Part shown: one piece after another, positions 4,019-22,260 of the stretch | How positions within the stretch are numbered: the first letter of the stretch is position 1 | Layout: every line of letters begins with the position of its first letter | IMG/VR virus record: IMGVR_UViG_3300042564_005422 | Reading direction: 5' to 3' (one strand) | Origin: an uncultured virus (IMG/VR IMGVR_UViG_3300042564_005422) | Lineage: Duplodnaviria > Heunggongvirae > Uroviricota > Caudoviricetes | Length of the DNA: 64,000 nucleotides | The notes under the pieces: model-generated | The model's database searches: none | The model's input: only the letters and a program-made list of their open reading frames with translations | What the model was told of the DNA's origin: nothing | Translations under genes and position numbers: made by a program

Positions 4019-4025
4019 TATTTCT

Positions 4026-5243: not shown

Positions 5244-5246
5244 TTT

Positions 5247-5948
5247 ATGATACAGTACCCATTAAACAAACTATTATTTATAGATATTGAGACTGTTGGG
5301 GTTTCAAGTAATTACGATACTTTCAAAAGAGACTACCCGTCTCTTTGTTATCAATTTGATAATTATTTAGATTGGTTTCAAAAAAGATTTACTGAAGATT
5401 CAGATAAATCAAAAGAAGATATATTTGTTAACCGAGCCGCTTTAGTACCTGAATTTTGTAAAATAATTTGTGTCTCAGTAGGGTTTATTGGACCTGATAA
5501 TACAGTTAAAAAACAAACTTTTTTTAATTCAGATGAAACTCAATTATTAAAAGATGTCAACACACTATTAAATCGTGTTGATAAATTAGGGTTTGTGCTT
5601 TGTGGACATAATATTAAGAATTTTGATATTCCTGTGTTAGGAAAAAGAATGATAATTAATGGTATATTACCATCATCAATTTTACCAACTCCCGACACAA
5701 AACCTTGGGAAGTTAAAGCGGTTGACACTAAAGATATTTGGCAATTTGGTCAATTTGGAGCAATCAGTTCTTTAGAATTGATGTGTATATCTTTAGGAAT
5801 TGAATCATCTAAAAATATGGAAGTTACGGGTAATAAAGTACACTATTATTTTTGGAATGAAAACAAATACCAAGAGATACAAGATTACTGTGAAAAAGAC
5901 GTTGAGGTTTTAATAAATGTTGTTAAAAAAATTAAAAATTTAAAATGA
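5247..5948 (+). CDS. Stand-alone DEDDy 3'-5' exonuclease (PolB exonuclease-like)
   Basis: ExoI DIET, ExoII GHNIKNFD and ExoIII YCEKD motifs. Confidence 0.85.
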   Translation: MIQYPLNKLLFIDIETVGVSSNYDTFKRDYPSLCYQFDNYLDWFQKRFTEDSDKSKEDIFVNRAALVPEFCKIICVSVGFIGPDNTVKKQTFFNSDETQLLKDVNTLLNRVDKLGFVLCGHNIKNFDIPVLGKRMIINGILPSSILPTPDTKPWEVKAVDTKDIWQFGQFGAISSLELMCISLGIESSKNMEVTGNKVHYYFWNENKYQEIQDYCEKDVEVLINVVKKIKNLK

Positions 5949-6544
5949 ATTTAGATATTAACGACGAGGATTTTGATTTATATGAGGAAATGAAAAAAAT
6001 TCAAGAATCTTTAGATAAAGAATCTAATTTGAATTTATATAAACAAATTTCGGATGATTATGGTATTGATTTAAAAGACTTTGAAGACAAAATGATAGAG
6101 TCTATGAAAAAACTTGACTTACCTTATTCATCGGAAACTGATTTAGATTTAAAGTATAATTACGTATCCGACAGTGGGTTTGATTTATACTCAACAGAGG
6201 AAATTTCAATTGAAGCTTTTGGAAGAGCTTTAATACCTACGGGCATTAGATTTGAGATACCTGAAGGTTTTGAAATTCAGGTTAGGTCAAAAAGTGGATT
6301 AGCTCTTAAACAAGGGTTAATGGTTCTTAATAGTCCAGGTACTGTTGATGAGGGGTACACTGGTGAGGTACAAGTAATAGTGTTTAATACAAATAAAGAA
6401 TCATTTAAAATTACTAAAGGTATGAAAATTGCTCAAGCGGTTTTATCCAAATGTTATCCCGGTAGAAATGTTAATTTGGTTAAAGTAAGTAAAGTTGAAA
6501 ATAAAGACCGTGGTGAAAACGGATTTGGAAGTACAGGAATATGA
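5945..6544 (+). CDS. dut: Trimeric dUTPase
   Basis: SGFDL, RSKSGLA, PGTVDEGYTGE, IAQ and RGENGFGSTG (motifs I-V). Confidence 0.95.
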   Translation: MNLDINDEDFDLYEEMKKIQESLDKESNLNLYKQISDDYGIDLKDFEDKMIESMKKLDLPYSSETDLDLKYNYVSDSGFDLYSTEEISIEAFGRALIPTGIRFEIPEGFEIQVRSKSGLALKQGLMVLNSPGTVDEGYTGEVQVIVFNTNKESFKITKGMKIAQAVLSKCYPGRNVNLVKVSKVENKDRGENGFGSTGI

Positions 6545-8178
6545 TAACAATTGGATATAGTACAAGAAAATCAAATCCTGAATTTCAGGAATATTTAAAA
6601 AAATCATGTGGTAACCCAAAAATACAGATTATTGAAAAAGTTAACAATGGTGAAAAAAATCTTTCAGTTGTTTATAACGAAATATTATCTGAGTCAACTA
6701 ATGATATTGTAGTATTGTGTCATGATGACATTTATTTTGATACAAAAAATTGGGGGGAAAAACTTAAAAAAGTTTTTGATAGAAATAATGAGTTTTCAAT
6801 TTTAGGAGTTGCAGGAACAACAAGTTTACCTATTAGTGGTATGTGGTGGGAAGATAGGTCTAAAATGTTTGGTATTGTGAATCATGAACATGATGGTAAA
6901 AAATGGGAATCAAGGTATTCGGATTCTTTACAAAACAATGTTAAAGAAGTTGTACTTGTTGACGGTTTGTTTATGTGTTTAAATAAACAAAAAATTAAAG
7001 ACTCTTTTGATGAATCAGTTGATGGATTCCATTTTTATGATGTCAATTTTTGTTTTAAAAATTATTTAAGTGGGTGTAAGATTGGAGTAATTACAAATAT
7101 TAGAATCACCCATAAGTCAATAGGAATGACAAATGAAAAATGGGAAGAAAATAGGAAAATTTTTTCTGAAAAGTATAAAAACAACTTACCTTCAAAAATA
7201 AAAGTAACCGAAAATGACAAATTAAAAGTTTTAATTGGTTGTTTATTTTTTAGAGAATTTACAGGTTCTGAAATGTACGTTTACGAACTATCCAAAAATT
7301 TACTAAAAATGAATGTAGATGTTTCTATTGTTGCTTATGAAACTGTCGGTAGATTATCTGAAATTGCTAAAAAAGAAGGGATTAAAGTTTATAATATTAC
7401 AGAACCTCCAGGGTTTAAAATGGGGGACGGAATTTGGAGGATGTCTACACCAAATGGGATAATAACAACTGAAAAAAACAAATATTATAGAATCTCAAAT
7501 GAAACGTTTGATATTATTCATTACCAACACCAACCTGTTGTAAATACGTTAAATAATTTATATCCCGATATTAAAAAAATATATACTATACATTCTGAAG
7601 TCATTTCTTTAGAAAATCCAATAATTAATGAGAGTGTTAAAAAATACATAGCAATTCGACCTGAGATTAAAGAGTGTATTGTTAAAAATTTTAACGTACC
7701 CGAAAACCTTGTTGAAGTTATTTACAACCCAATTAATTCTGAAAAATTTAATATTAAAAATACAAAAGATTTAGGTTACACTTTATTTGTTGGGACAATT
7801 GACGAGATACGAAAACAAACCATTTTTGATTTAATTAAAACCACTAAAGAAAATAATAAAACATTATATATTGTAGGTAAAAATCAATCAAACTATTTAA
7901 ATTCAATTTTAAATGAGTCTCATGTAAAATATTTTGACAGTACGATTGATGTACAAAAATATGTTAAAGATTGTTCCGAAACTGCTGGTATTTTATTAGG
8001 TAGAACTACAATTGAAGGTTGGATGTGCGGTAAAAGTGGTTGGATATACAACATTGATAATTTAGGTAACATAATCGATAAAAAATTACATGAGCCACCT
8101 TTAGATGTGGAAAGATTTGATTCATTAAATGTTACTAAAAAAATAAAACAAAATTATATAGACATAATTAATTTATGA
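6541..8178 (+). CDS. Two-domain glycosyltransferase (GT-A N-terminal, GT-B C-terminal)
   Basis: N-half has LCHDD, LGVAG, VDGLF and FHFYD; C-half has TGSEMYVYEL, IYNPI, LFVGTID and GRTTIEGW. Confidence 0.8.
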   Translation: MITIGYSTRKSNPEFQEYLKKSCGNPKIQIIEKVNNGEKNLSVVYNEILSESTNDIVVLCHDDIYFDTKNWGEKLKKVFDRNNEFSILGVAGTTSLPISGMWWEDRSKMFGIVNHEHDGKKWESRYSDSLQNNVKEVVLVDGLFMCLNKQKIKDSFDESVDGFHFYDVNFCFKNYLSGCKIGVITNIRITHKSIGMTNEKWEENRKIFSEKYKNNLPSKIKVTENDKLKVLIGCLFFREFTGSEMYVYELSKNLLKMNVDVSIVAYETVGRLSEIAKKEGIKVYNITEPPGFKMGDGIWRMSTPNGIITTEKNKYYRISNETFDIIHYQHQPVVNTLNNLYPDIKKIYTIHSEVISLENPIINESVKKYIAIRPEIKECIVKNFNVPENLVEVIYNPINSEKFNIKNTKDLGYTLFVGTIDEIRKQTIFDLIKTTKENNKTLYIVGKNQSNYLNSILNESHVKYFDSTIDVQKYVKDCSETAGILLGRTTIEGWMCGKSGWIYNIDNLGNIIDKKLHEPPLDVERFDSLNVTKKIKQNYIDIINL

Positions 8179-8822
8179 TTTTAAACAATTTTTTTTCCAA
8201 ATCCTTTTGTATAAATTTAGACAGAAGACAAGACAGATGGACGACTATTACTAAAAAATTTAATGATTTTGGAATTGTTGCTGAAAGGTATTCCGCATTT
8301 GATGGTAAAACTTTAACATTACCATATCCTCATTCATCTGAATTAGGGGGTACCATATCTCATTTAAATGTGATTAAAATGGCGAAAGAGTTAAATTTAA
8401 AGAACGTTTTAATATACGAAGATGACGTTGAATTTGATTCAAATATTTCTGAAAAATTTGAATCAATTATTCCTCAGATTCCTGAAGATTGGGACCTTAT
8501 ATATTTTGGTGGAAACCACCAAGGTCCAATTAAACAAATTTCCGAAAACATTTTTAAATTGTCTCACACTTATGCATTACAAATGTATGCAGTTAATTCA
8601 AAATCATACGACACAATTATAGATTTTTTAGAAGATAAAGTTAATAAGGTATTAGATAAAAAAGTATCTTTTAAACCATCAGTAGCTGCCGATTTTTATT
8701 TATCTTTATTACAACCAAAATTAAATTGTTATTGTATTAGACCTCATTTAACTTGGCAAATTCAAGATTATTCTGACATACAAGAACACATTGTAAATTA
8801 TGACTATTTGTTAAAAAAATAA
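8175..8822 (+). CDS. GT25-family glycosyltransferase
   Basis: Motifs CINLDRRQDR, AFDG, SH, LIYEDD and DWDLIYFG. Confidence 0.85.
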   Translation: MILNNFFSKSFCINLDRRQDRWTTITKKFNDFGIVAERYSAFDGKTLTLPYPHSSELGGTISHLNVIKMAKELNLKNVLIYEDDVEFDSNISEKFESIIPQIPEDWDLIYFGGNHQGPIKQISENIFKLSHTYALQMYAVNSKSYDTIIDFLEDKVNKVLDKKVSFKPSVAADFYLSLLQPKLNCYCIRPHLTWQIQDYSDIQEHIVNYDYLLKK

Positions 8823-8824
8823 TT

Positions 8825-9640
8825 ATGGATAAAATAAATTTAAAAGATATTACTTTTTCACATAGCGTATTGGGTTATTGTAGCGATTTTCAAAAAGACA
8901 ATAGGTTTTTTTGGGATAGGTCAAATTTAGACTCAAGTATTCCATGTGTATATACAGATTTCATGTTAGGACATGAAAAAATAGATAATTATGAAAAAAA
9001 CTATGCTTGGTTAATTGAACCAATGTGTATTAACTCAAATACCTACAACTATATTTTAAATAATCACCAAAATTTTAATAAAGTTTTTACACATGAAAAA
9101 TCATTACTTGATTTAAATAAGAATTTTGAATTAGTACCTTTTGGATGTTGTTGGATTGACCCTGAACAACAAAAAGTTTATAAAAAATCAAAAGACATAT
9201 CAATTATATCTTCAAATAAAAGACAAACTGACGGACATCAATTACGTCATTTGGTTATAGATAGATATAAAGATAAAATGGATGTTTATGGTAGAGGTTA
9301 TTCACCAATTGATAGAAAAATAGAAGGTTTAAAAGATTATAGATTTTCAATAGTAATTGAAAACTGTAAAAGAGATTACTGGTTTACTGAAAAATTAATA
9401 GACTGTTTTACAACTGGGACTATCCCGATTTATTGGGGGTGTCCATCGATTGGTGATTTTTTTAACACTAAAGGAATGATTTGTTTTGACAAAATAGAAG
9501 AAATAGAAGATATTTTAACAAGTTGTAATAAAGATTTATATGAAAAAATGTTACCTTTTGTAATTGAAAATTACGAAAAATCTAAATCTTACATTTTACC
9601 TGACTCAATAATTTATAATAAATTAAAAACTAATGGATAA
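8825..9640 (+). CDS. GT10-like (alpha-1,3/4-fucosyltransferase family) glycosyltransferase
   Basis: YRFSIVIEN...YWFTEKLIDCF..GTIPIYWG motif. Confidence 0.85.
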   Translation: MDKINLKDITFSHSVLGYCSDFQKDNRFFWDRSNLDSSIPCVYTDFMLGHEKIDNYEKNYAWLIEPMCINSNTYNYILNNHQNFNKVFTHEKSLLDLNKNFELVPFGCCWIDPEQQKVYKKSKDISIISSNKRQTDGHQLRHLVIDRYKDKMDVYGRGYSPIDRKIEGLKDYRFSIVIENCKRDYWFTEKLIDCFTTGTIPIYWGCPSIGDFFNTKGMICFDKIEEIEDILTSCNKDLYEKMLPFVIENYEKSKSYILPDSIIYNKLKTNG

Positions 9641-10463
9641 TATAATATCTACCGCATTGTTACAAGGAGGTTTAGGTAACCAAATGTTTCAAATTGCACA
9701 TTCGTATTCTCAGGGGTTAAAAAATAAAATACCATCGGTTTTTTTACCACAAGCATACACCCCAATGGGTAAAGCAAAACAACCCACACATTATATTAAT
9801 AATATTTTTAAAAAAATTAATTTTGTTAATAATATAAATGTTAAAAAAATAGTTAGTGAGTATAGTTGGAATGAACCTAACTTGAATTTTAATTGGGACG
9901 AGTCAGTTGGGTTTAATGGGTATTTTCAAAGTAGTAAAAATTTTTTAGGGTATGACAAAGAAATAATTGATTTATTCTTACCTTCTGAAGAATTTAAAGA
10001 AAAAATATTTAAAAAATACCCTCAATTATTATCTAATAATACGACATCAATTCATATTAGAAGAGGTGATTATCTAACAATATCTGATATACTACCAGTT
10101 ATAGATATTTCATATATTAAACACTGTATGAGTCTTTTACCTGAAACTGAAACATTTTTTATTTTTTCAGATGATTTTACTTGGGTAAAAAATAATATTA
10201 AATCTGATAAAGTTATATTTGTTGAAGATAATGACGATTATGAAGACCTATGGATGATTAGTCTTTGTAAAAATAATATAATGTCAAACTCATCTTTTTC
10301 TTGGTGGGGGTCTTTTTTAAACCAAAATAAAGATAACAAAGTTTTTGTCCCTAATATTTGGTTTGGCCCAAGAGGTGAAAAAGAATTTAATAATGTGTAT
10401 GAAAATGAGTGGAAAAAAATAAATGTAAAATTTAATAATGGATTATTATACTACAATGACTAA
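9633..10463 (+). CDS. GT11 alpha-1,2-fucosyl/colitosyltransferase
   Basis: Motifs GGLGNQMFQ, GYFQS, SIHIRRGDY, FIFSDD and SNSSFSWWG. Confidence 0.92.
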   Translation: MDNIISTALLQGGLGNQMFQIAHSYSQGLKNKIPSVFLPQAYTPMGKAKQPTHYINNIFKKINFVNNINVKKIVSEYSWNEPNLNFNWDESVGFNGYFQSSKNFLGYDKEIIDLFLPSEEFKEKIFKKYPQLLSNNTTSIHIRRGDYLTISDILPVIDISYIKHCMSLLPETETFFIFSDDFTWVKNNIKSDKVIFVEDNDDYEDLWMISLCKNNIMSNSSFSWWGSFLNQNKDNKVFVPNIWFGPRGEKEFNNVYENEWKKINVKFNNGLLYYND

Positions 10464-11175
10464 TCAAGATATTTCAAAATTAATTAATAAAGAAGTTGGT
10501 AAAACGGCAATAATCTGTGGTACAGGACCTTCTTTGGGGAATTATTTAAACATTTTAGAAAGTAATAATGATTACATTAAAATTTGTTGTAATGAAATTA
10601 ACATTATGACAAAAATAGTCCCTAATTATTGGGTTTTTGCAAATTCCCACCAAACTATACATTCAATGGTAGAAACTTTTAAAAAATTTCCAAATACTAC
10701 TGTTGTACATGCCGATTCTGTTGACACCACCCCTTGGGAATGGATAGTTGAAAATGTAGACACGAACTACTTTAGATATGACCAAAGACATTTTAATGGA
10801 GAAACTTGTACTAATTGTCCAAATAAATGTCATAATTTAAATCCAAAATTTTTAACAATACAAGAATTATTAAAAAATTATACAAATTACGAAAAAATAT
10901 ATAGTACAGGTAGTACAGTTGCGGTACACATGTTGGCTTTAGCGATATTACTTGGGTGTAAAAAAATATATATTTGTGGAGTTGAGTTAAACTACTCATT
11001 AGGGTATGTTTCACCAGACTTTACCAACTACTCAAGTTTTAATCCTCATCTTGATGAGATATTAACCGATTTTGAAATAATTAAACAAAGTGCCGAAAAA
11101 ATAAATGTCGAGATTCAAAATCTAAGTGATATGTCTCATTTAAAGAAAATTTTTAATACTTCTAATATCTTATAA
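10456..11175 (+). CDS. Maf/DUF115- or GT42(Cst)-like CMP-ulosonate transferase
   Basis: IICGTGPSL...CCNE...STVAVHMLALAILLGCKKIYICGVE resembles the GxGPSL...LGxKxIYxxGxD signature. Confidence 0.7.
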   Translation: MTNQDISKLINKEVGKTAIICGTGPSLGNYLNILESNNDYIKICCNEINIMTKIVPNYWVFANSHQTIHSMVETFKKFPNTTVVHADSVDTTPWEWIVENVDTNYFRYDQRHFNGETCTNCPNKCHNLNPKFLTIQELLKNYTNYEKIYSTGSTVAVHMLALAILLGCKKIYICGVELNYSLGYVSPDFTNYSSFNPHLDEILTDFEIIKQSAEKINVEIQNLSDMSHLKKIFNTSNIL

Positions 11176-11178
11176 AAA

Positions 11179-11973
11179 ATGTCACACAAAAATTTAACAG
11201 CTTATAATGGGTATGAAATATTTTACGATAAAAACGAAATGGAAAAATATCGTCAAAATAAATTAAACGATTGTGAAAAAAATTTAAAATTTATAAATTC
11301 TTTTTTTAAAGAAAAAATTAATATTTTAGAATTGGGTTCAGGTAATTCAAAATTATTATATAATTTGAATTTAAAAAATTTACTCAATTTTGGGTACGGA
11401 TTTGAAATAAGTGAAGACAGATTTAATTTTGCGGAAAATTGGAGACGTGATTTAAACATAGAAAATGTTAAAAATATATGTGATAATTTTTTAAATTTAA
11501 AAAAATATAATTTTTCTAATATTGATTTATGTTATATGTCAGATTTATCTTTTCAGTTTTGTGAACCAATATCCGAAGGTTTTGAAATTAAATTATTAAA
11601 GGATGTTTATGAAACTTTGAAAAAAAATGGTAAGATAATAATTGAACTCGATGGGTGTAAAAAAATTTTAGATTCTATTAAAATGGGTGGTAAAATTTGG
11701 GATGAGTTTGATTATCCTGACCCATGGCAATATTCTCTTTGGGATTGTAAATTTGACGACTCAAATAATTTTTTAACGTGGGATAAAACATTTATTTCAA
11801 GGGATGAAAATAAAAAGAGTAATTCGTCGGTAATTTTAAAAATTTATAATAAAGAACAAATAAAAAATTTGTTGTTGTCGGTTGGTTTTAAAAATATTAT
11901 CTTTTTTCAAGATTGGGAGTTAGGTGAATTTAATTGTGATGGTACTGAATTTATTATAATTGCGGAAAAATAA
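11179..11973 (+). CDS. Class I SAM-dependent methyltransferase
   Basis: Motif I ILELGSGNS, followed by GFEIS and LKKNGKIII. Confidence 0.8.
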   Translation: MSHKNLTAYNGYEIFYDKNEMEKYRQNKLNDCEKNLKFINSFFKEKINILELGSGNSKLLYNLNLKNLLNFGYGFEISEDRFNFAENWRRDLNIENVKNICDNFLNLKKYNFSNIDLCYMSDLSFQFCEPISEGFEIKLLKDVYETLKKNGKIIIELDGCKKILDSIKMGGKIWDEFDYPDPWQYSLWDCKFDDSNNFLTWDKTFISRDENKKSNSSVILKIYNKEQIKNLLLSVGFKNIIFFQDWELGEFNCDGTEFIIIAEK

Positions 11974-11974
11974 T

Positions 11975-12646
11975 ATGGTTTGTTTAATTTTAGCTCGGGG
12001 CGGAAGTAAGGGTGTCCCTCAAAAAAATATTAAAGAATTAAATGGAGTTCCACTAATTGGTTACGTAATTGAAGCCGCCAAAAAAACAAGTAACATTAAT
12101 GAAATTTATGTCTCAACAGATTGTCAGGATATTAAAAAAATTTCTTTATCATATGGAGTAAAAATTATTGATAGACCTTTAGAACTATGTCAAGATAATT
12201 CTTTAGATATTGATGCATTTAAACATTTTTGTAATGTTACCAATATAAATTCCCCAATTGTTCATTTAAGAGCCACAACCCCTCTTATAAAACCACATAT
12301 TTTAGATGATGCAATTTTTGAATTTGAAAAAAATAAACATTTGGTTACAAGTCTTAGGTCAGGACATGAAATGTCTGAATCCGCGTATAAATTTTTTATT
12401 AAAAAAAGAGGACTATGGTATCCAATAGTAGAAAATATGGACCAAAATAATCCTAGACAATCGTATCCAAAAACATATGTCCCTAATGGTTATATTGATA
12501 TTGTAAAACCAGAAATTTTTATGAAAGGGGATAACTTATACGGGAAAAAAATATATTCTTATGTAACAAATTTAACTCAAGAAATTGACACAATAGAAGA
12601 TTTTGAGTATATTGAATATCTAATTAAAAATAAAAAATATGTATGA
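11975..12646 (+). CDS. neuA: Acylneuraminate/ulosonate cytidylyltransferase (NeuA family)
   Basis: ILARGGSKGVPQKN, VSTD, RP.EL, L.ATTPL, PNGYI and EIDT.EDF. Confidence 0.9.
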   Translation: MVCLILARGGSKGVPQKNIKELNGVPLIGYVIEAAKKTSNINEIYVSTDCQDIKKISLSYGVKIIDRPLELCQDNSLDIDAFKHFCNVTNINSPIVHLRATTPLIKPHILDDAIFEFEKNKHLVTSLRSGHEMSESAYKFFIKKRGLWYPIVENMDQNNPRQSYPKTYVPNGYIDIVKPEIFMKGDNLYGKKIYSYVTNLTQEIDTIEDFEYIEYLIKNKKYV

Positions 12647-13976
12647 GTTTTCAAAAACCCCAATAGAATGTGTAAAAATAAAAACAAAAAATAGATGTAT
12701 TCAAACTAAAATTCCATCACCGGAAACTATCAAAATAATACAGGATTGTATTAATTACGAACCTAATTCAATGAATGACCAATTACCAATTGTTTGGGAT
12801 TCGGCACTTGATTATTCGGTTTATGATGTTTCAGGTAATAAATGGATTGATTTTACATCTTCAATATTTGTTACAAATGTTGGTCACTCAAACCCTAAAG
12901 TAAAAGAGGCGATTATCTCAAAAACAAATAGGAACTTATTGAACGCCTACTACTACCCAACAAAAGAAAGGTCTGAGTTTTCAAAACTACTTGTTGAAAT
13001 AACCCCTGAAAAATTTGATAAGGTTTTATTTTTATCAACTGGCTCTGAATCAGTTGAATGTGCAATTAAGATGTCAATTAAGTATAACCATAAGAACAAA
13101 GTTATTTCATTTAATAATGGTTATCACGGTAAAACAATGGGTTCCGCAATGGTTGGGGGAAAATTCAAATCACAAGAATGGATACCTGTTAAAACTTACG
13201 TAACACATTTACCATACCCTGACTCAATCACAATAAAAAATGAAAATTTATCTCCTAAAGAATTATTTGAAAAATATTTTAAAGACCTCAACCCTAATGA
13301 GTATTCCGCAGTCATAATGGAACCATATCAAGGATGGTCCGCGGAATTTGCGTCTAAAGAATACATACAATTACTAAGAGAATGGTGTACCAAAAATGAA
13401 GTTTTATTAATCATAGATGAAATTCAATCAGGATTTGGTAGAACTGGTAAACTTTTTGCATATGAACATTTTGAAATTATTCCTGATATTATTGTTTGTG
13501 CTAAAGGCATTTCATCGTCATTACCACTATCTTGTGTCATAACAAACAATAAAATTATTAATACTGATATGTCTTATAATAGTACTCACGGTGGGAATCC
13601 AGTTGCGGTTGCGGCGTCTGAGGCCTCTGTTAAATTCCTTATTGAAAATGATTTAATTAATGAATCAATGAGGAAGGGCAAATTAATGGAGTCTGAGTTA
13701 TTAGAATGGAAACATCAAATGTCAAAATACGTTAAGAAAGTAAATTGCCAAGGTTTGTTAGCTGGAGTTTTTATAGAATCACCTGACGGTAATAATATTG
13801 ATTTTGTTGATAGACTAATTGAAATTGCAATGAGAAAAGGATTGTTATCAATTAGAACTCAATCAGGGACATTAAAAATAGGTCCCCCACTTACTATTTC
13901 AGATGACGCACTAATTGAAGGTATTAACGTATTAAAAGAAAGTTTAATAGAATGTTTAGACACGTTGGAATTGTAG
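12639..13976 (+). CDS. Class III PLP-dependent aminotransferase
   Basis: TGSESVE, YHGKT, IIDEIQSGFGRTG, PDI...AKG and STHGGNP. Confidence 0.92.
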   Translation: MYEFSKTPIECVKIKTKNRCIQTKIPSPETIKIIQDCINYEPNSMNDQLPIVWDSALDYSVYDVSGNKWIDFTSSIFVTNVGHSNPKVKEAIISKTNRNLLNAYYYPTKERSEFSKLLVEITPEKFDKVLFLSTGSESVECAIKMSIKYNHKNKVISFNNGYHGKTMGSAMVGGKFKSQEWIPVKTYVTHLPYPDSITIKNENLSPKELFEKYFKDLNPNEYSAVIMEPYQGWSAEFASKEYIQLLREWCTKNEVLLIIDEIQSGFGRTGKLFAYEHFEIIPDIIVCAKGISSSLPLSCVITNNKIINTDMSYNSTHGGNPVAVAASEASVKFLIENDLINESMRKGKLMESELLEWKHQMSKYVKKVNCQGLLAGVFIESPDGNNIDFVDRLIEIAMRKGLLSIRTQSGTLKIGPPLTISDDALIEGINVLKESLIECLDTLEL

Positions 13977-14365
13977 TAAATGATATCGATAGAATGATTT
14001 GGTTCTATCATAAAATTTTAGGATTAGATATAATGTATGATAAAATTGAAAGTGGACACTTTTTAAACCATATATTAAATTCTAAAGAATTGTCCCCAAG
14101 AATTATTAAGTTAGGTAAAGATAACTCTACAATTGTTGAACTTTTATTTTTTAAAAATTGTGAGTTAATTGAAAAAAATTTGTTTTCTAATGGGTATACT
14201 CATTTCGCACTAACAGTAAAAGATTCTGAAAATTTACACAAAATAATGATAGACAATGGTTTATCAGTGATAAATAATCCAATAATTTCAGATGAAAAAA
14301 CCGTTAAAGTTTTTTTCGCAAAAGACCCTGAAAATAATATAATTGAATTTGTTGAGTTATTATGA
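13952..14365 (+). CDS. VOC/glyoxalase-family protein
   Basis: HVGIVV...FY..ILG, VELL, HFALTV and F.KDPENNIIE. Confidence 0.9.
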   Translation: MFRHVGIVVNDIDRMIWFYHKILGLDIMYDKIESGHFLNHILNSKELSPRIIKLGKDNSTIVELLFFKNCELIEKNLFSNGYTHFALTVKDSENLHKIMIDNGLSVINNPIISDEKTVKVFFAKDPENNIIEFVELL

Positions 14366-15132
14366 AAATTGGGATATTACAGGGTAGGTTAAGTAAACCT
14401 ATCGATAATAAAATGCAAGAGTTTCCAATAGATACTTGGGAAAATGAATTTAATCATATTAAACATATTGGTATATCAGGTATTGAGTGGTTAATTACCC
14501 CAAAAGATAATTTAACCAATCCATTTTTTACTAATAATAATCTTCCTAAAAATATTTTATCCGTATGTGTCGACACTATGGTTAACACAAATTTTTATAA
14601 AAAAAAATTTTTAAATAAAAATTTAATTCCTGTTTTAAATAGAATGACTGAATTAAAAATTAAAAAAGTTGTCATTCCTTTACTTGAGGATAGTTCAGTT
14701 ACTGATATATCAATTAGATATAAATTTTTAAAGAATTTTGTACCTATTTCAGTAAAATATCCAAACATAGATTTTTGTTTTGAATTTGAATGTAAAAAAG
14801 AAATTGTTATGAAAATTGTGAATAGAATGGATAATTTTTTTATTACCTACGACACTGGTAATTTTACATCTTTTTATAAAGAAAATATTAATCACCAAGA
14901 ATTAATACAGTATTTTGGTAATAAAATTAAAAATATTCACATTAAAGATAGAAATTATCAAGGAGAAACAAAATTGTTTGGATTTGGGGATACAAATTTT
15001 AAAGTAATATTTGAAATATTAAAAAAAATTAACTATAATGAAAATGTAATTTTACAACTCGCGAGAGAAGTTGAATGTAACGAAGTAAATTACATATCCG
15101 AAACGTTAAAAAAAATTAATAAAATTATATGA
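14362..15132 (+). CDS. Sugar-phosphate isomerase/epimerase (xylose-isomerase-like TIM barrel)
   Basis: MKIGILQGRLS, IEW, FE, YDTGN and IHIKDR metal-binding motifs. Confidence 0.8.
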   Translation: MKIGILQGRLSKPIDNKMQEFPIDTWENEFNHIKHIGISGIEWLITPKDNLTNPFFTNNNLPKNILSVCVDTMVNTNFYKKKFLNKNLIPVLNRMTELKIKKVVIPLLEDSSVTDISIRYKFLKNFVPISVKYPNIDFCFEFECKKEIVMKIVNRMDNFFITYDTGNFTSFYKENINHQELIQYFGNKIKNIHIKDRNYQGETKLFGFGDTNFKVIFEILKKINYNENVILQLAREVECNEVNYISETLKKINKII

Positions 15133-15947
15133 GAAACTTATTTGATTTAGATGGTAAAATTGCACTTATAACAGGTGCTGGTGGTTTATTGGGTCCAAAA
15201 CACGCCGAAGCTCTCTTAGAGTATGGAGCAAAAGTAATTTTGACAGATGTTAATATGGATAATTTAAAAGAAAAGTATCAGTATCTTTCAGAAAAATATG
15301 GTATAGAAAATATCAGTATAGAATATATGGATGTCACTAAAAAAGACACTATTGAAGTTGTTAGTGAAAAATATGATAGAATTGACATATTAATTAATAA
15401 TGCGGCTAAAGACCCAAAGGTAACAAAAGATGATAATAGTTTAACTCCTGAAACAAGATTTGAGGTTATGAGTGAATCTTACTTTAAAGAAGGGATTGAT
15501 GCAATTATAAATGGAACGTTTATGACTTCTCAAGTTATTTGTAATAAGATGTTAAAAACAGGAGGGGGAGTTGTTTTAAATATTTCATCAGATTTAGGTG
15601 TAATTGCTCCTGACCAAAGAATATATCGTGATGAGTCAAAAAAAGAAGAAGAACAGAACGTTAAACCAATAACATATTCCGCAGCTAAATGGGCGGTAGT
15701 CGGGATGACAAAATACTTATCAACTTATTTCGCAAAAAACAATATAAGAGTCAATTGTTTAAGCCCAACAGGTGTGTATAATGACCATCCTATTGATTTT
15801 GTAAATAAACTAAGTAATATTATCCCAATGGGAAGAATGGCCCATATTGACGAATACAAAGGGGCAATTGTTTTTATGTGTTCTGACGCGAGTTCTTATA
15901 TGACAGGAACTAATTTAATAATTGATGGAGGTAAAACAGTATGGTAA
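15129..15947 (+). CDS. SDR oxidoreductase (resembles PtmA-type SDRs of nonulosonate loci)
   Basis: TGAGGLLG, INNA, YSAAK, IRVNCLSP and DGG. Confidence 0.88.
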   Translation: MRNLFDLDGKIALITGAGGLLGPKHAEALLEYGAKVILTDVNMDNLKEKYQYLSEKYGIENISIEYMDVTKKDTIEVVSEKYDRIDILINNAAKDPKVTKDDNSLTPETRFEVMSESYFKEGIDAIINGTFMTSQVICNKMLKTGGGVVLNISSDLGVIAPDQRIYRDESKKEEEQNVKPITYSAAKWAVVGMTKYLSTYFAKNNIRVNCLSPTGVYNDHPIDFVNKLSNIIPMGRMAHIDEYKGAIVFMCSDASSYMTGTNLIIDGGKTVW

Positions 15948-16828
15948 ACAATAATTTATATTTAGAATTAATAGACCTTAAAATAATCGATAAAAATAAG
16001 ATTGAGGAATTTTATCCATATGTAAGGGATAACAAAAACATACCTGTAATGAGGTGTAAAAAATCAGGAGTTATTTTTCTTAAAAATTTAGACCACGTAT
16101 CAAATGAGCATTATACAGAAATGGAAAATTTTTCATATTGGGAATCTAAAACTAGAGATGAAGCTTTAGAACTGACATACGGAGATGATATTAGAAGATT
16201 TAAATCAATATCCCATCTTATTGAAAATAAATCTTATTTAGATTTTGGGTGTGGTTTAGGTGGAGTATTAGATATGGCAAAACAAGTGACAACCAATGTT
16301 AGTGGTTTAGAGCCACAAAAAAATATCGCAGATAATTTAAGAAAATTAAATTATACCATATTTGAATCAATTGAAGAAATTATTAATAATAATATAAAAT
16401 TTGACGTAATTACTTTATTTCATGTTTTTGAACATGTTCCTAACCCACTTGAAATTTTAGAAAAAATACATACAATACTTAATCCTGATGGGTATTTGAT
16501 AATTGAAGTACCAAATGCAAATGACGCTTTGATTACATTGTATAATTTGGAATCATTTAAAGAATATACTTTTTGGAGTGAACATTTAATTCTTCACACA
16601 AAGAACAGTTTAAAAAAATATTTAAAAATCTCAGGATTTAAAAATATAAAAATAAATGGTTTACAAAGATATGGGTTATCAAATCATTTATATTGGTTAA
16701 AGGACGGTAAACCAGGTGGTCAAAATATTTTTAAAGAGATTAATGGGGGGTCAATTGACCGAGAGTATTTTAAAATTTTAAATAAAAATAATTTAACAGA
16801 TACAATAATTTCAATTTGTCAAAAATAA
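15941..16828 (+). CDS. Class I SAM-dependent methyltransferase
   Basis: LDFGCGLG, FDVITLFHVFEH and GYLIIEVPN. Confidence 0.88.
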   Translation: MVNNNLYLELIDLKIIDKNKIEEFYPYVRDNKNIPVMRCKKSGVIFLKNLDHVSNEHYTEMENFSYWESKTRDEALELTYGDDIRRFKSISHLIENKSYLDFGCGLGGVLDMAKQVTTNVSGLEPQKNIADNLRKLNYTIFESIEEIINNNIKFDVITLFHVFEHVPNPLEILEKIHTILNPDGYLIIEVPNANDALITLYNLESFKEYTFWSEHLILHTKNSLKKYLKISGFKNIKINGLQRYGLSNHLYWLKDGKPGGQNIFKEINGGSIDREYFKILNKNNLTDTIISICQK

Positions 16829-16832
16829 AAAA

Positions 16833-17411
16833 ATGGTAGAAAAAATTATTAAAAATATTAAAAAATCTATTGAACTTAAACAAAATATTTTAAACGATGT
16901 TAACATGTTAAAAAATATTGAGTTAGTTGCAAATAAAATAATCGAATGTTACGGTAGAGGTAACAAAGTTTATTTTTGTGGTAATGGTGGTAGTTTTTCA
17001 GATGCACAACATTTATCTGCGGAATTAAGTGGTCGATTCTATTTTGATAGGAACCCTTTAGAAGTTGTTTTATTAGGTTCTAATTTTTCATATTTAACTG
17101 CAGTAGCAAATGACTACTCATATGATGAAATCTTTTCAAGAGAGATTAAATCATCTTTTAATGAAGGTGATGTGTTAATATCATTCTCAACTTCAGGTAA
17201 ATCTAAAAATGTAATAAAGGCAATTAAATCTATTGAAAATGAACTTGGTCACGTTATTTCTTTTTTGGGTAATGATGGGGGAGAAATTAAAGATATTTCA
17301 GATATATCAATTATCATTCCTTCAAATGATACCGCAAGAATACAAGAGTGTCATATGATTTTAGGTCATACAATATTAGAATTAGTCGAATCTCAAATTT
17401 TCAAAAAATAA
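16833..17411 (+). CDS. gmhA: GmhA-like SIS phosphosugar isomerase (sedoheptulose-7-phosphate isomerase family)
   Basis: CGNGGS..DAQH.SAEL.GRF, TAVANDY, STSG.S.NV and TARIQECH. Confidence 0.88.
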   Translation: MVEKIIKNIKKSIELKQNILNDVNMLKNIELVANKIIECYGRGNKVYFCGNGGSFSDAQHLSAELSGRFYFDRNPLEVVLLGSNFSYLTAVANDYSYDEIFSREIKSSFNEGDVLISFSTSGKSKNVIKAIKSIENELGHVISFLGNDGGEIKDISDISIIIPSNDTARIQECHMILGHTILELVESQIFKK

Positions 17412-17434
17412 TAAAAATAAAAAAAACAAATAAA

Positions 17435-18271
17435 ATGAAAAAAACGTACATTATTGCAGAAATCGGAATTAATCATAATGGTGATTTAGATTTGGCCAAA
17501 GAATTAATTATTAAAGCACAATCATCAGGATGTGATGCAGTCAAATTTCAAAAAAGAGATATTGACTCAGTATATACTAAAGAAGAATTAGATGCATATA
17601 GAGAATCTCCTTGGGGGACAACTAATCGTGAACAAAAAATGGGTTTAGAATTTAGTATTGAACAATACAAAATTTTAGAATCGTTTTCTAATAATTTAGG
17701 TTTGGATTTTATTGTCTCATGTTGGGATTTAAATAGTTTAAAATTGATAAATGAAAATTGTAACGTTAAGTACCATAAAATAGCGTCCGCCTTATTAACC
17801 GACAGAGAATTTTTAAATGGTATTAATGAGACAGGAAAACCTGTAATTGTTTCAACAGGGATGTCAACTGAAGAAGAAATTAATATGGCACTTTCCATTT
17901 TAAAAAATGTTGAGTACGTATTGGCGTGTACAAGTACCTATCCAACTAAAGATGAAGAACTTAATATTAACTATATTAAAACTTTAAAACAAAAATACCC
18001 AAATTATAAAATAGGTTTTTCAAATCACGCAAGTGGATTAATTCCTTGTTTTGCGGCAGTATCAATAGGCTCTGAATGTATTGAGTATCATATTACAAAA
18101 GATAGAACTATGTATGGTTCAGACCAAGCGGCGTCAATTGAACACTCTGAGGAATTAGTTTCAGGAATTAGAAAAATTGAGTCAATTATGGGAGATGGTG
18201 TTAAAGTGGTATACGAAACTGAAAAACCAATTGCAAAAAAACTAAGAAAAGTTAATAATATTTTAAAATAA
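17435..18271 (+). CDS. neuB: NeuB-family PEP-condensing ulosonate synthase lacking the C-terminal SAF/AFP domain
   Basis: IIAEIGINHNG, DAVKFQKR, KIAS, VSTGMS, CTSTYP, GFSNH and IEYHIT. It is 278 aa from ATG 17435. Confidence 0.9.
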   Translation: MKKTYIIAEIGINHNGDLDLAKELIIKAQSSGCDAVKFQKRDIDSVYTKEELDAYRESPWGTTNREQKMGLEFSIEQYKILESFSNNLGLDFIVSCWDLNSLKLINENCNVKYHKIASALLTDREFLNGINETGKPVIVSTGMSTEEEINMALSILKNVEYVLACTSTYPTKDEELNINYIKTLKQKYPNYKIGFSNHASGLIPCFAAVSIGSECIEYHITKDRTMYGSDQAASIEHSEELVSGIRKIESIMGDGVKVVYETEKPIAKKLRKVNNILK

Positions 18272-18574
18272 ATGATTTATTGTTTTGATTTAGATGGTAC
18301 TCTTTGTACCAATACAGACGGTGATTATTTAAACGCAAAACCATTTCATGAAAGAATTAATTTAGTAAATAAACTTTATAATGATGGAAATACCATTCTT
18401 ATAGACACTGCAAGAGGTTCAACAACCGGAATTAATTGGGAGGATATTACATCTTCCCAATTAAAAGATTGGGGAGTTAACTATCATAAATTAAGAGTTG
18501 GAATTAAATTAAATGCCGATATTTTTATTGACGATAAAGCAATAAACGACAATATTTTTTTTGATAAAAAATGA
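18272..18574 (+). CDS. Small capless HAD phosphatase (capsule-biosynthesis type)
   Basis: FDLDGTL, TARG and K...D.FIDDKA. Confidence 0.85.
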   Translation: MIYCFDLDGTLCTNTDGDYLNAKPFHERINLVNKLYNDGNTILIDTARGSTTGINWEDITSSQLKDWGVNYHKLRVGIKLNADIFIDDKAINDNIFFDKK

Positions 18575-19242
18575 ATAAAAAATTAATTAGTGTAATTCTA
18601 CCAAGTAGGGGTAGAATCGAATTTTTATTACAAACATTAAATTCTTTAATTGATAAATGTGATGATATAAATAATATTGAAATATTAGTTAAAGTAGACG
18701 ACGATGATACTGAAACAATTAATGGTTTAAAATCATATGATAAATTTAATTTTATAACTATAGTTGTTTCGGGGCGAAAAAATGGGTACGCATCTCTTAA
18801 TGAATTCTATAATGAACTTTATGAAAAATCTTCAGGGGAATTTATATTTTGTGCCAATGACGATATGACAATAATTACTGATAAATGGGATACTTTAGTT
18901 AAACCGTATTCGGGTGAATTCATTTGTTTACATCATAATCCGGCATTCCCACATAACGAGACTTGGTATTTCCCAATAATATCGAAAAGTATTTTAGACA
19001 TTATTGGGTGTGTATCTAAATCAGTTTTTTATGACGGTTATTTATATTTTATGTTAGATGGTTTAAGTTTATTTAAACAAATAGATTTATCTATTAATCA
19101 CATAAGATTACATGATGAATTAACATCGGACAAATTAGAAACTTTAAAACGATTTGAGGAGACTGAGTGGGAATTTGACACCAAAAGGGGATTAATGGAT
19201 ATTGATAGGCATAAAATTATAGATTATTTAAATGAAAGATAA
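18571..19242 (+). CDS. GT-A/GT2-like glycosyltransferase
   Basis: SVILPSRGR, VDDDD and FCANDD. Confidence 0.8.
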   Translation: MNKKLISVILPSRGRIEFLLQTLNSLIDKCDDINNIEILVKVDDDDTETINGLKSYDKFNFITIVVSGRKNGYASLNEFYNELYEKSSGEFIFCANDDMTIITDKWDTLVKPYSGEFICLHHNPAFPHNETWYFPIISKSILDIIGCVSKSVFYDGYLYFMLDGLSLFKQIDLSINHIRLHDELTSDKLETLKRFEETEWEFDTKRGLMDIDRHKIIDYLNER

Positions 19243-20140
19243 GGAAATAATTTTAATAACTGGTGGTTCAGGAATGGTAGGAAAATCACTTTTAAAATTA
19301 CTACCTCATTCAATATACGTTTCATCAAAAGATTATGATTTAACTAAAGAAGACGATGTTAAACGTATGTTTGAAACACATAAACCAACCAAAATAGTTC
19401 ATTTAGCAGCTAAGGTTGGGGGCATTATTGACAACATAAAAAAACCATACGATTATTTTATTGAAAATATTAAGATGAATACTTACATGGTCGAGTATTC
19501 ATATAAATTTGGGGTTACTCAATTTATTGGAATTTTATCAACGTGTATTTATCCTGATTCAGTAGAAAAATATCCAATGAATGAAACTGATTTACATTTA
19601 GGTCCCCCAACAATTACTAACTTTTCCTACGGTTATTCAAAAAGATGTTTGGCAGTCCAAATAGATTCTTTAAACAAACAATATGGTACTAATTATCAAT
19701 ATTTAATACCTTGTAATTTATACGGTGAAAATGATAAAATGGGAGAAAACAGTCATTTTGTCGCAGCCTTACTTGAAAAGATTATTCAAGCCAATAAACT
19801 ATCACAAAGTGAAATCACTTTATTTGGTTCAGGAAATCCATTAAGACAATTTATGCATTCCGATGATTTAGCTTGGGTTATTAATGAATGTTTAACAAAG
19901 AATATATATGAAAGTTTTAATGTGGCAAATAAAGAAAATTTATCAATCAGAGAAATTGCTGAAATTTCGTTAAACTCTTTAAACTTAGGACATATTAAAA
20001 TTAATTTTGATTCTACAAAACCTGATGGACAATACCGAAAAGATGTGTCAATAGACAAGTTAAATAATTTACTTCCCAATTTTAGTCCATTACCTTTTGA
20101 AAAAGGTATAAAACAAGTTTATGATAAAATTAGTAAGTGA
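19232..20140 (+). CDS. fcl: GDP-L-fucose/colitose synthase (Fcl/ColC family)
   Basis: TGGSGMVG, HLAAKVGGI, STCIYP, YGYSKR, PCNLYG, G.PLRQF and KPDG. Confidence 0.9.
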   Translation: MKDKEIILITGGSGMVGKSLLKLLPHSIYVSSKDYDLTKEDDVKRMFETHKPTKIVHLAAKVGGIIDNIKKPYDYFIENIKMNTYMVEYSYKFGVTQFIGILSTCIYPDSVEKYPMNETDLHLGPPTITNFSYGYSKRCLAVQIDSLNKQYGTNYQYLIPCNLYGENDKMGENSHFVAALLEKIIQANKLSQSEITLFGSGNPLRQFMHSDDLAWVINECLTKNIYESFNVANKENLSIREIAEISLNSLNLGHIKINFDSTKPDGQYRKDVSIDKLNNLLPNFSPLPFEKGIKQVYDKISK

Positions 20141-21275
20141 TACGATAAATAAAGAAGATATTAAGTATCTTGTAGAATGGTTATCTCAAGATGAGATACC
20201 TAGGTTAACTAAAGGTGATTTAACTATTGAATTAGAAAAAAAATGGGCGAAAAAAATTGGGACAAAATATTCGGTTTTTGTTAATTCAGGGTCCTCGTCA
20301 ATATTACTTTCATTAGCCGCTTTTTTATATTCAAAAAAAATTAAAAATAAAAAAATAGTAATTCCATCATTAAGTTGGGCAACAGACGTTAGTTCTCCAA
20401 TATTACTTGGTATGGAACCAATTATGTGTGATTGTAATTTAGAAGATTTGTCTTGTGACTTAGAACACTTAGAACATATTTTTAAAACCGAGTCCCCATC
20501 ATCATTTATTTTAGTATCTCCATTAGGTTTAGTTCCTGACATGGAAAAAATTATAAGTTTATGTGAAAAATATGACGTTGTACTATTTGAAGATGTGTGT
20601 GAGAGTATGGGGTCAAAATATAAAAACGATTATTTAGGTTCTTTTGGGTTTGCGTCATTTTTTTCAATGTATTTTGGACACCATTTAAGTACAATTGAAG
20701 GCGGGTTTATTAATACTAATGATGAAGATTTTTATCATTTATTATTAATGATGAGAAGTCACGGTTGGGATAGAGATTTACCGTTAGAAAAACAAAAATC
20801 ATTACGTGAAAAATATTCTGTAGATGACTTCACGTCTTTATATAACTTTTACGTACCTGGGTTCAATCTACGGTCTACAGATTTACAAGCGTTTATTGGT
20901 CTTAGAGCTATTGATAAATTAGACAAATATTGTTTAATTAGAAATCAAAATTTTAAAAATTATTTAGATTTAATTAATGTGAATGATTTAAATATAAAAA
21001 TTGATGATAATAATTTTATATCAAATTTTGCGTTACCAATTGTTAACAAAAATAAAGAAAAAATTGTTAATGAATTAATTAAAAATAATATTGAAGTTAG
21101 ACCACTTATTGCAGGTAACATGTCAAATAAACCAATGTGGTATGAAAACTACGGAAAAATTGATTTAAAAAATTGCGAATTAATTGATAAATACGGATTT
21201 TACATTCCAAATCATCAAGATTTAACGATTAATGAAATTCAAAAAATAAGTAAAATTATAAATGAAAATGGATAA
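20121..21275 (+). CDS. colD: ColD-like GDP-4-keto-6-deoxy-D-mannose 3-dehydratase (DegT fold with His at the PLP-lysine position)
   Basis: VNSGSS, EDVCESMG, SMYFGHHLSTIEGG (His-His instead of the aminotransferase Lys) and RSHGW; it lies between fcl and gmd. Confidence 0.8.
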   Translation: MIKLVSDTINKEDIKYLVEWLSQDEIPRLTKGDLTIELEKKWAKKIGTKYSVFVNSGSSSILLSLAAFLYSKKIKNKKIVIPSLSWATDVSSPILLGMEPIMCDCNLEDLSCDLEHLEHIFKTESPSSFILVSPLGLVPDMEKIISLCEKYDVVLFEDVCESMGSKYKNDYLGSFGFASFFSMYFGHHLSTIEGGFINTNDEDFYHLLLMMRSHGWDRDLPLEKQKSLREKYSVDDFTSLYNFYVPGFNLRSTDLQAFIGLRAIDKLDKYCLIRNQNFKNYLDLINVNDLNIKIDDNNFISNFALPIVNKNKEKIVNELIKNNIEVRPLIAGNMSNKPMWYENYGKIDLKNCELIDKYGFYIPNHQDLTINEIQKISKIINENG

Positions 21276-22260
21276 AAAAATTGCATTAATTACAGGTATT
21301 AATGGTCAAGATGGGTCATATCTTTCTGAACTTTTATTAGAAAAGGGGTATGAGGTACATGGAACACTTAAACGTAATTCAGTTTCCGAAAATCAAACAT
21401 CAAGATTACAAAACGTATATGATAAAATAATTTTACATTACGCCGATATGACTGACCTTTCATCATTAATTAGTATTATCCAAAAAGTAATGCCGGATGA
21501 AATTTACAATCTTGCAGCACAATCCCACGTAAGAATATCTTTTGACCAACCAATTTACACCGCTAATGTTACAGGTATAGGTACTTTAAATTTATTAGAA
21601 GCGGTTAAATTAATTAAACCAAATACCAAAATATATCAAGCGTCATCATCTGAGATGTTTGGTAACACTATAGATTCAGATGGGTTTCAAAGAGAAACTA
21701 CTCCTTTAAATCCTGTATCACCATACGGTTGTTCCAAAGTATTTAGTTATAATATTTGTCGTAATTATAGAAATTCTTACGGAATGTTTATTTCAAACGG
21801 AATTTTATTTAATCATGAATCACCGAGAAGAGGAACAAACTTTGTTACCAATAAAGTATGTAAAGAAGCTGTTAAGATTAAATTAGGACTATCTAATGAG
21901 TTAAAATTGGGTAATCTTGATGCAACACGAGATTGGGGACACGCCAAAGATTATGTTAAAGCAATGTGGGAAATTTTACAATTAGACAAACCTGATGATT
22001 TTGTTTGTGCCACAGGTATCTCACATTCAGTTAGAGAACTTTGTGATTATGTTTTCACATCATTAGGTTTAGACTATAAAGAATATGTGGCACAAGACGA
22101 AAAATTTTTAAGGCCTGAAGAACTACACGATTTAAAAGGAGACTCATCTAAATTAATTAAATCAACAGGATGGTCTCACGATTACACATTTGAGACAATG
22201 TTAGATGAAATGATTAATTATTGGTTTGTTTATTACAGTGATGGTAATGTTAACCATTAA
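21262..22260 (+). CDS. gmd: GDP-mannose 4,6-dehydratase
   Basis: ITGINGQDGSYL, YNLAAQSHV, QASSSEMFG, SPYGCSK, NGILFNHESPRRG and RDWGHAKDY. Confidence 0.95.
   Translation: MKMDKKIALITGINGQDGSYLSELLLEKGYEVHGTLKRNSVSENQTSRLQNVYDKIILHYADMTDLSSLISIIQKVMPDEIYNLAAQSHVRISFDQPIYTANVTGIGTLNLLEAVKLIKPNTKIYQASSSEMFGNTIDSDGFQRETTPLNPVSPYGCSKVFSYNICRNYRNSYGMFISNGILFNHESPRRGTNFVTNKVCKEAVKIKLGLSNELKLGNLDATRDWGHAKDYVKAMWEILQLDKPDDFVCATGISHSVRELCDYVFTSLGLDYKEYVAQDEKFLRPEELHDLKGDSSKLIKSTGWSHDYTFETMLDEMINYWFVYYSDGNVNH

Follow-up and report, generated by a model that had tools for sequence, protein, structure and literature searches.

What kind of acidic sugar is produced by the run of 11 genes at positions 10456-18574 of IMG/VR record IMGVR_UViG_3300042564_005422, an uncultured virus of the Caudoviricetes? 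The window analyzed is the whole stretch of 64,000 nucleotides, and the full record comprises 72.6 kilobases (kb). The initial annotation had noted a GmhA-like isomerase, a short NeuB and a HAD phosphatase side by side, with NeuA, a Maf/GT42-like transferase, an SDR oxidoreductase, a class III aminotransferase, a TIM barrel, a VOC protein and two methyltransferases nearby, and had proposed a ten-carbon ulosonic acid built from a heptose. All 11 genes were found on the + strand; the spacing between neighbors ranges from -25 to +23 bases, and nearly all of them touch or overlap the next gene. The cassette is a real, conserved and uncharacterized ulosonate pathway of a jumbo phage, similar in logic to the pathways of Kdn (the nine-carbon 3-deoxy-nonulosonic acid) and Kdo (3-deoxy-octulosonic acid) and failing several tests for either. 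A phosphorylated ulosonate route, running through an isomerase, a phosphoenolpyruvate (PEP)-condensing synthase, a phosphatase, a cytidine monophosphate (CMP) transferase and a final transferase, is well supported. Gene content tips the balance somewhat toward a ten-carbon amino-ulosonate, formed via heptose-7-phosphate, as the product; comparative support has made this part of the original proposal the better bet, short of proof.

Gene families were assigned by matches to Pfam, NCBIfam and the Protein Data Bank (PDB), and what is described below on gene content, family membership, gene order, fusions and co-occurrence is direct observation. In agreement with the initial annotation, NeuC, PseB/C, LegB/C, HldE and HddA were not found among the 64 open reading frames (ORFs) of the window or in the 72.6-kb record, and neither were GmhB and the small cupin discussed below. 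Family models assigned no window ORF to the KdsA-type synthase, KdsD or KdsB of the Kdo pathway. NeuA reaches 102 bits with the PseF model and 47 bits with the KdsB model, each below the cut-off. For the Maf-like protein, which probably starts at ATG 10456, the best PDB match is the GT42 sialyltransferase 2P2V (E 8.5e-5). A search for conserved neighborhoods, suggested at the outset, showed that the order NeuA, aminotransferase, VOC, TIM, SDR, GmhA, NeuB, HAD is kept in seven phage relatives selected by NeuB (L002, L004-L009), so the arrangement is not due to chance; another related locus, L003, is truncated and stands outside this count.

In the proposed pathway, the phage GmhA would isomerize sedoheptulose-7-phosphate of the host to D-glycero-D-manno-heptose-7-phosphate. 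The short NeuB would then join this heptose phosphate to PEP, yielding a ten-carbon 3-deoxy-dec-2-ulosonate 10-phosphate. Dephosphorylation would fall to the small HAD, which might instead act before NeuB, and NeuA would produce the CMP-sugar. The SDR, together with the aminotransferase/VOC pair, would replace one hydroxyl with an amine, with the TIM barrel possibly acting first as an epimerase, and N- or O-methylation would be carried out by the methyltransferases. The Maf/GT42-like enzyme would then attach the sugar to a glycan made by the phage, most plausibly one carried by the virion. All of these reactions are predictions from sequence, and so are the length of the carbon chain, the succession of steps and the acceptor.

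The entry enzyme has the active-site pattern of an ordinary heptose isomerase. The SIS fold of the window GmhA has its metal, catalytic and phosphate-binding residues intact. At 22 active-site positions, chosen in part from the 2XBL alignment, it shows the pattern of GmhAs linked to HddA or HldE with at most two conservative differences; the GmhA-like proteins of L256-L259, catabolic-looking by context, deviate at two of the 22. Fructose-6-phosphate may serve as an alternative substrate.

GmhA is also linked to this type of NeuB in cellular genomes. Among 80 cellular loci collected around the NeuBs closest to that of the window, GmhA was matched in 33, of which 32 lack HldE or HddA, and KdsC-GmhA fusions were present in 10; NeuB and GmhA are themselves fused in 2 of 120 long NeuBs. 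(The GmhA-like gene of L091 is KdsD-like and that of L047 reaches 57 bits only; neither was counted.) Sedoheptulose-7-phosphate is made by transketolase and transaldolase, and an archaeal locus (L099, Methanoperedens record) carries a split transketolase, transaldolase, GmhA, radical SAM protein, NeuB, NeuA, aminotransferase and VOC in one run. This transaldolase is the only match in its genome, where searches for HldE and HddA found neither. In a survey of 52 hand-picked draft genomes using thresholded matches, GmhA was found in 36, HldE in 28 and an HddA-like match in 14; of 35 GmhA-positive drafts with this NeuB type, 14 have, at the thresholds used, neither heptose kinase. In an even sample of Clostridia, 10 of 400 genomes were positive for GmhA and 4 of 399 for a close NeuB; two of these four were search seeds, one adjoins KdsC-GmhA, and one lies on a phage-like contig end without GmhA. 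In control regions of Kdn type, GmhA was present in 4 of 19 Bacteroidia regions centered on the best Kdn-9-phosphate phosphatase matches, every time with HldE, and in none of 13 actinobacterial regions.

The synthase itself differs from known relatives. The window NeuB, most likely starting at ATG 17435, shows no match to a C-terminal SAF domain, which confirms its earlier description as short and SAF-less; in sialic acid synthase, Arg314 of this domain is described as placing the N-acetyl group (PMC6795526). Its scores fall short of both cut-offs, at 228 of 400 bits for TIGR03569 and 158 of 340 bits for TIGR03586. The TIM-barrel NeuB domain retains its PEP- and metal-binding residues: E9, K37, Q39, K115, S118, Y169, H198, H219 and D230 are conserved in essentially all aligned relatives. 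All 51 Kdn-type reference synthases, typed by gene context (Bacteroidia, actinobacterial and two smaller groups), have Tyr64 with His or Tyr at 67; in the window type, position 64 is Asn, Gln or Thr and position 67 is Gln or Leu. These two residues sit in the loop that carries the substrate-contacting Asn74 of Neisseria meningitidis NeuB, and from this location they probably face the sugar. None of 42 Tyr-type synthases has GmhA within 1.3 kb, versus 29 of 149 others, and the three Phe64 variants, including that of L010, a phage of the same family, all lack GmhA in the locus. Both synthase types occur together in four loci. Smaller residues at these positions may provide a roomier pocket. A single-sequence AlphaFold model of NeuB was rejected (mean predicted local distance difference test score, pLDDT, of 56; loop 40-71 under 50), so we only infer this roomier pocket. 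One protein of 695 amino acids (aa), P0122, is a fusion of a GT29 sialyltransferase, NeuA and this NeuB type, and is 60% identical to the window NeuB.

The NeuB phylogeny proposed by the initial annotation gave a mixed outcome: the loop-residue types can be distinguished, and clean clades were not obtained. The branch of Bacteroides thetaiotaomicron (BT)-like Kdn synthases is separate from the window NeuB, and the actinobacterial branch is close or nested. A single clade for the GmhA-linked NeuBs was not supported by the trees, and they are therefore treated as a residue type.

A second link to heptose operons is provided by a small cupin and by the phosphatase. Only TIGR01689 matched the window HAD; the KdsC/YrbI-type model of Kdn-9-phosphate phosphatase (NF058599) did not. 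In the tree, the window HAD and related proteins cluster with HADs linked to HldE (support 0.994; mean identity only 48%), and proteins that resemble it in structure occur as fusions with SIS, cupin, HldE-type transferase and NeuA domains. In a set of 80 viral NeuB loci, GmhA occurs alone in 12, the cupin alone in 32 and both in one (Fisher p 0.011); 9 of the 13 GmhA-bearing loci belong to one phage group, so this avoidance is only suggestive. Among 80 viral cupin loci (L260-L339), 47 contain the HldE kinase, and these 47 include the HldE-type transferase in 43, a small HAD in 43, a GmhA match in 2 and GmhB in 0. Of 120 long cupins, 37 include PfkB or cytidylyltransferase-like domains; all 10 fusions of this type that were checked match HldE models best, though below cut-off; among the other checked fusions, one matches a heptose epimerase and two match nothing. 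The cupin and small HAD are thus likely stand-ins for GmhA and GmhB in phage heptose operons. The confident cupin model (pLDDT 96) has a fold match that supports aldose-ketose isomerization, yet would fit hexoses too. In L270 one protein joins the cupin to NeuB, and 15 of 21 loci with cupin and NeuB have neither HldE nor GmhA. GmhA and the unrelated cupin each hold the first step of heptose operons; two such enzymes therefore accompany this NeuB.

As a separate observation, most phage heptose operons pair split HldE with a cupin of 115-130 aa and a HAD of 100 aa and have no GmhA or GmhB; fusions of cupin or HAD to HldE and to heptose epimerase are present (P0327, P0341, P0333).

Tailoring genes also follow a regular pattern. 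The 64 loci with an aminotransferase near NeuB contain only an SDR in 41 cases, only a radical SAM/SPASM gene in 17, neither in 6 and both in none. The best solved relative of the radical SAM/SPASM gene is BtrN, a dehydrogenase. Of 46 loci with a class III aminotransferase, 40 also have VOC close to NeuB; of 18 with class IV, none does. By analogy with 8-amino-Kdo (Kdo8N), oxidation followed by amination is likely. The TIM barrel resembles ketose-phosphate 3-epimerases in family models and is fused to NeuB in P0123.

In three small phages (L069:4270-16185, L061:9986-17426 and L449:7562-18116), the cassette or a minimal NeuB-oxidase-NeuA version lies among terminase, portal and head genes. The cassette of L069 is located between portal and head-morphogenesis genes, which favors virion glycosylation. 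A virion glycan is most plausibly the target, with host-surface or DNA modification as alternatives; mycobacteriophage capsids are described as bearing glycans (PMC12619734).

Several findings weigh against the ten-carbon product. The record covers roughly one quarter of the phage genome, and HldE or HddA could come from the host. Neither GmhA nor cupin is seen in 35 of the 80 viral and 47 of the 80 cellular NeuB loci, and 16 of the 52 draft genomes gave no GmhA match, 9 of these 16 having HldE. The window GmhA scores 171.5 bits, below the TIGR00441 cut-off of 209.45, and two KdsC-GmhA fusions have a degenerate GmhA site. The top folds for the cupin are D-lyxose and D-mannose isomerases (D-lyxose isomerase best), two checked cupin fusions match mannose-1-phosphate guanylyltransferase best, and the cupin-fused NeuB of L270 has Tyr64. 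No structural model backs the sugar-facing position of residues 64 and 67. The loop types are not independent samples, with a single-clade support of 0.53, and IQ-TREE, with five long-branch rows left out, nests the actinobacterial Tyr type inside the type of the window. Moreover, a TIM-fused NeuB of Serratia is reported to yield plain Kdn (PMC9000132). On the matter of scores, two of three complete top-scoring Clostridia GmhAs likewise lie below the TIGR00441 cut-off. The Caulobacter control has HldE and no GmhA match; together with the nine GmhA-negative genomes that have HldE, it indicates that an absent GmhA match does not show absent heptose. Caulobacter, and G1317, which also lacks a cupin-profile match, hint at a third heptose-phosphate isomerase.

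A Kdn derivative, counting both routes by which it might arise, is a possible product, though on balance a doubtful one. In an unlikely version, NeuB would condense mannose-6-phosphate with PEP, and GmhA, or elsewhere the cupin, would interconvert fructose-6-phosphate and mannose-6-phosphate; the product would be an amino-, methyl-Kdn, made by the same manno-series chemistry with one carbon fewer. The nearest named synthases are indeed actinobacterial NeuA-NeuB proteins (about 45% identity), Kdn is reported in Streptomyces walls (PMC11481543), the cupin resembles D-lyxose/mannose isomerase in fold, and many NeuB loci are without any heptose gene. Against this stand the unchanged GmhA active site, the confinement of GmhA in Kdn-type loci to those with HldE, the transketolase and transaldolase inside the L099 operon, the membership of cupin and HAD in HldE operons, and the coexistence of two synthase types. 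The glycan island around the cassette is also relevant. Its Gmd, ColD-like dehydrase and Fcl/ColC would likely make GDP-colitose from host GDP-mannose (GDP, guanosine diphosphate), so the island likely draws on the host for this precursor; no mannose-phosphate genes were seen in it, and with such reliance a Kdn route would need no isomerase of its own. Improbable is the version in which NeuB makes Kdn from host mannose-6-phosphate, and GmhA and HAD are left over from, or feed, a distinct nucleotide-heptose pathway whose kinases lie elsewhere in the phage or in the host. It would agree with the roughly three quarters of the phage that lie outside the record, the grouping of the window HAD with HldE-linked HADs, the free gene shuffling in the island, an RmlC-like ORF outside it (judged by eye), and relative L010, which retains NeuB and HAD without GmhA. 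However, heptose-activating genes, which the initial annotation had suggested might explain GmhA if present elsewhere, did not appear: HldE/GHMP kinase was not found in the 72.6-kb record or in five cassette-bearing viral records of 14-31% completeness, and GmhA and HldE are both missing from a complete capsid relative that lacks the cassette. The NeuB-GmhA and KdsC-GmhA fusions and the 14 genomes with GmhA and neither kinase also speak against passenger genes.

Still more remote is another aldose phosphate as the substrate, either because the TIM barrel epimerizes the ketose phosphate first or because the isomerase takes xylulose-5-phosphate, giving another stereoisomer or an eight-carbon Kdo isomer. 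The resemblance of the TIM barrel to ketose-phosphate 3-epimerases, its fusion to NeuB and the KdsC-type phosphatases beside cellular versions of this NeuB are compatible with such a scheme, but a KdsD-type isomerase is absent from the window, and the smaller loop residues would suggest a longer rather than a shorter substrate. Five Gastranaerophilales genomes with this NeuB also keep a true KdsA, so NeuB does not replace Kdo synthesis there; with KdsA above cut-off in 5 of 5 genomes, the candidate role of NeuB as a substitute Kdo synthase in this order was ruled out. HldE is likewise present in 5 of 5, and a strong GmhA match in only 2 of 5.

Cellular loci show further variants of the ten-carbon candidate synthase. 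In Gastranaerophilales (including L082, L087, L097, L100, L104 and L106), NeuB and KdsC occupy a fixed housekeeping context. The same NeuB and KdsC, usually with GmhA, occur in L088, L089, L101, L108, L123, L137, L145 (Acidobacteria), L146, L147 and L452 (Clostridia), where they adjoin a thiamine-diphosphate enzyme and often dideoxyhexose-type genes, with NeuA absent from the locus. By analogy with the branched higher-carbon sugars yersiniose and caryophyllose, the ulosonate may act there as a donor for a sugar of this kind. In L128, L135, L143 and L162, split transketolase-like genes lie upstream of aminotransferase, SDR and NeuB; L135, L143 and L162 lack GmhA in the locus and have a synthase of the actinobacterial-like group.

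The source is a T4-like jumbo phage, with capsid protein Gp23, portal, terminase and prohead protease at 38.5-49.7 kb of the window and a genome of roughly 300-400 kb, of which the record holds 72.6 kb. An 84-kb record with identical NeuB and capsid is rated 21% complete, and the complete capsid relative has 293,850 bases; most of the genome thus lies outside the record. Capsid relatives are distant (41-46% identity across about half of the protein). The cassette belongs to a hypervariable glycan island (Table 1), whose size in this phage family varies between two genes (in L433) and about twenty. In eight relatives selected by capsid, one partly covered, other genes fill the island, without NeuB or GmhA. 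The DegT-family gene beside the cassette is ColD-like, not PseC or LegC. Elsewhere, an RmlC-type sugar epimerase-like ORF lies beyond the window at G000:C1:67703-68236, and a VanY-type peptidase with a peptidoglycan-binding domain, a ClpB-like ATPase and M23 peptidases are found at window positions 35910-37493, 54801-56843 and 60424-61656. Among 50,697 records of cultured phages, 3 NeuB and 9 GmhA matches were obtained, none informative.

Table 1. Genes of the ulosonate cassette and other features of the surrounding glycan island (window positions)
Feature	Positions	Strand	Basis or remark
Maf/MptE-like, GT42-related putative ulosonate transferase, 239 aa	10456..11175	+	PF01973 E 2.7e-16; CST-I E 3e-4
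S-adenosylmethionine (SAM)-dependent methyltransferase 1	11179..11973	+	PF13847 E 1e-7; variable among relatives
NeuA-family CMP-ulosonate synthetase	11960..12646	+	PF02348 E 3.8e-23
Class III pyridoxal phosphate (PLP) aminotransferase	12639..13976	+	PF00202 E 8.7e-88; without close solved relative
VOC/glyoxalase-fold protein	13952..14365	+	PF00903
Xylose-isomerase-like TIM barrel, putative epimerase/keto-isomerase	14362..15132	+	PF01261 E 2e-9
SDR oxidoreductase, putative oxidase before amination	15129..15947	+	PF13561 E 2e-36
SAM-dependent methyltransferase 2	15941..16828	+	PF13489 E 2e-26
GmhA-type sedoheptulose-7-phosphate isomerase (SIS_2)	16833..17411	+	PDB 2XBL E 4e-45
SAF-less NeuB-family PEP-condensing synthase, 278 aa, Asn64/Gln67 loop type	17435..18271	+	PF03102 E 1e-59
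Minimal HAD phosphatase, EcbF-type, 100 aa	18272..18574	+	TIGR01689 E 8e-6
Hypervariable glycan island	3987-22260		Flanked by dut and phoH; compared with L425-L433
GT2-GT4, GT25, GT10, GT11 glycosyltransferases	6541..10463	+	Same island; family matches
Fcl/ColC, ColD, Gmd	19232..22260	+	Family matches; GT10 and GT11 nearby

The cassette was found in many phyla, archaea and phages, where the usual annotation is sialic-acid synthesis. The broader proposal, that this widespread SAF-less NeuB subfamily is a 3-deoxy-deculosonate synthase fed with heptose-7-phosphate, and that large and small phages, supplied by GmhA or cupin, coat their particles with an acidic amino-methyl ten-carbon sugar, is evenly balanced. 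If correct, this step would be the ten-carbon continuation of the series after 3-deoxy-D-arabino-heptulosonate 7-phosphate (DAHP, seven carbons), Kdo (eight) and sialic acids (nine), and the cassette would be the first gene set tied to a ten-carbon sugar of the Kdo/sialic-acid series, represented in the literature searched by unassigned mass-spectrometry signals. It would also mean that phages encode an entire pathway for an acidic sugar, probably destined for glycans of the virion or the host surface. Literature searches, which covered few subscription papers, gave no account of this cassette, its pathway or a deculosonic-type ulosonate, and no paper joining cupin, sedoheptulose, GmhA and HldE; a phage-encoded amino-methyl-Kdn, the fallback product, is likewise undescribed within that coverage.

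Comparison with known systems places the cassette between several pathways. In B. thetaiotaomicron, BT1714 is the Kdn synthase and BT1713 the HAD phosphatase of the CMP-Kdn pathway, which also includes a CMP-Kdn synthetase. The cassette shares with that pathway, and with actinobacterial Kdn loci, a NeuB-family synthase, a HAD phosphatase and a CMP-transferase without N-acetyl precursor enzymes. It differs in that BT-like synthases have about 350 aa and form their own branch, whereas the window NeuB has no SAF domain and carries Asn64/Gln67 in place of Tyr/His-Tyr; moreover, its HAD is of the EcbF rather than the KdsC type, and GmhA, an aminotransferase, an oxidase and methyltransferases are added. 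In Serratia marcescens, the NeuA-NeuB of KL1/KL2 is reported to make Kdn with about 1:20 Neu5Ac (N-acetylneuraminic acid), and its NeuB is similarly tied to a sugar-phosphate isomerase/epimerase domain; that NeuB is long and multidomain, however, encoded by a 2241-bp gene, and the accessible text of the report does not mention a heptose gene (PMC9000132). A lake phage is described with ordinary neuABC (10.1101/655167).

CMP-activated ten-carbon ulosonates, predicted here from gene content, have a putative precedent by mass spectrometry in Magnetospirillum gryphiswaldense (Kleikamp 2020, PMC8157484; SugarBase, bioRxiv 10.64898/2026.04.20.719630). As described there, that sugar is at the oxidation state of pseudaminic or legionaminic acid (Pse/Leg), with a marker of m/z 311.10, two N-acetyl groups and one O-acetyl group. 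The best match of this organism to the Bacteroides Kdn synthase is 28%, and a link of the cassette to its ten-carbon sugar was unsupported; the route there is probably different.

With nucleotide-heptose pathways (GmhA, HldE or HddA/HddC, GmhB), the cassette shares the entry through GmhA and a HAD akin to the phosphatase of phage HldE operons, but a kinase or heptose nucleotidyltransferase was not found in the 72.6-kb record. The logic of isomerase, synthase, phosphatase and CMP-transferase is that of Kdo (KdsD, KdsA, KdsC, KdsB). In Shewanella Kdo8N, an ulosonate is oxidized and then transaminated, as in the predicted cassette route, with KdnA as the aminotransferase. The oxidase of that system is KdnB (PMC5125639). 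Unlike both of these eight-carbon pathways, the cassette has a NeuB rather than a KdsA fold, GmhA rather than KdsD, and an SDR or radical SAM protein rather than an iron-dependent alcohol dehydrogenase, and its predicted product has ten carbons, not eight.

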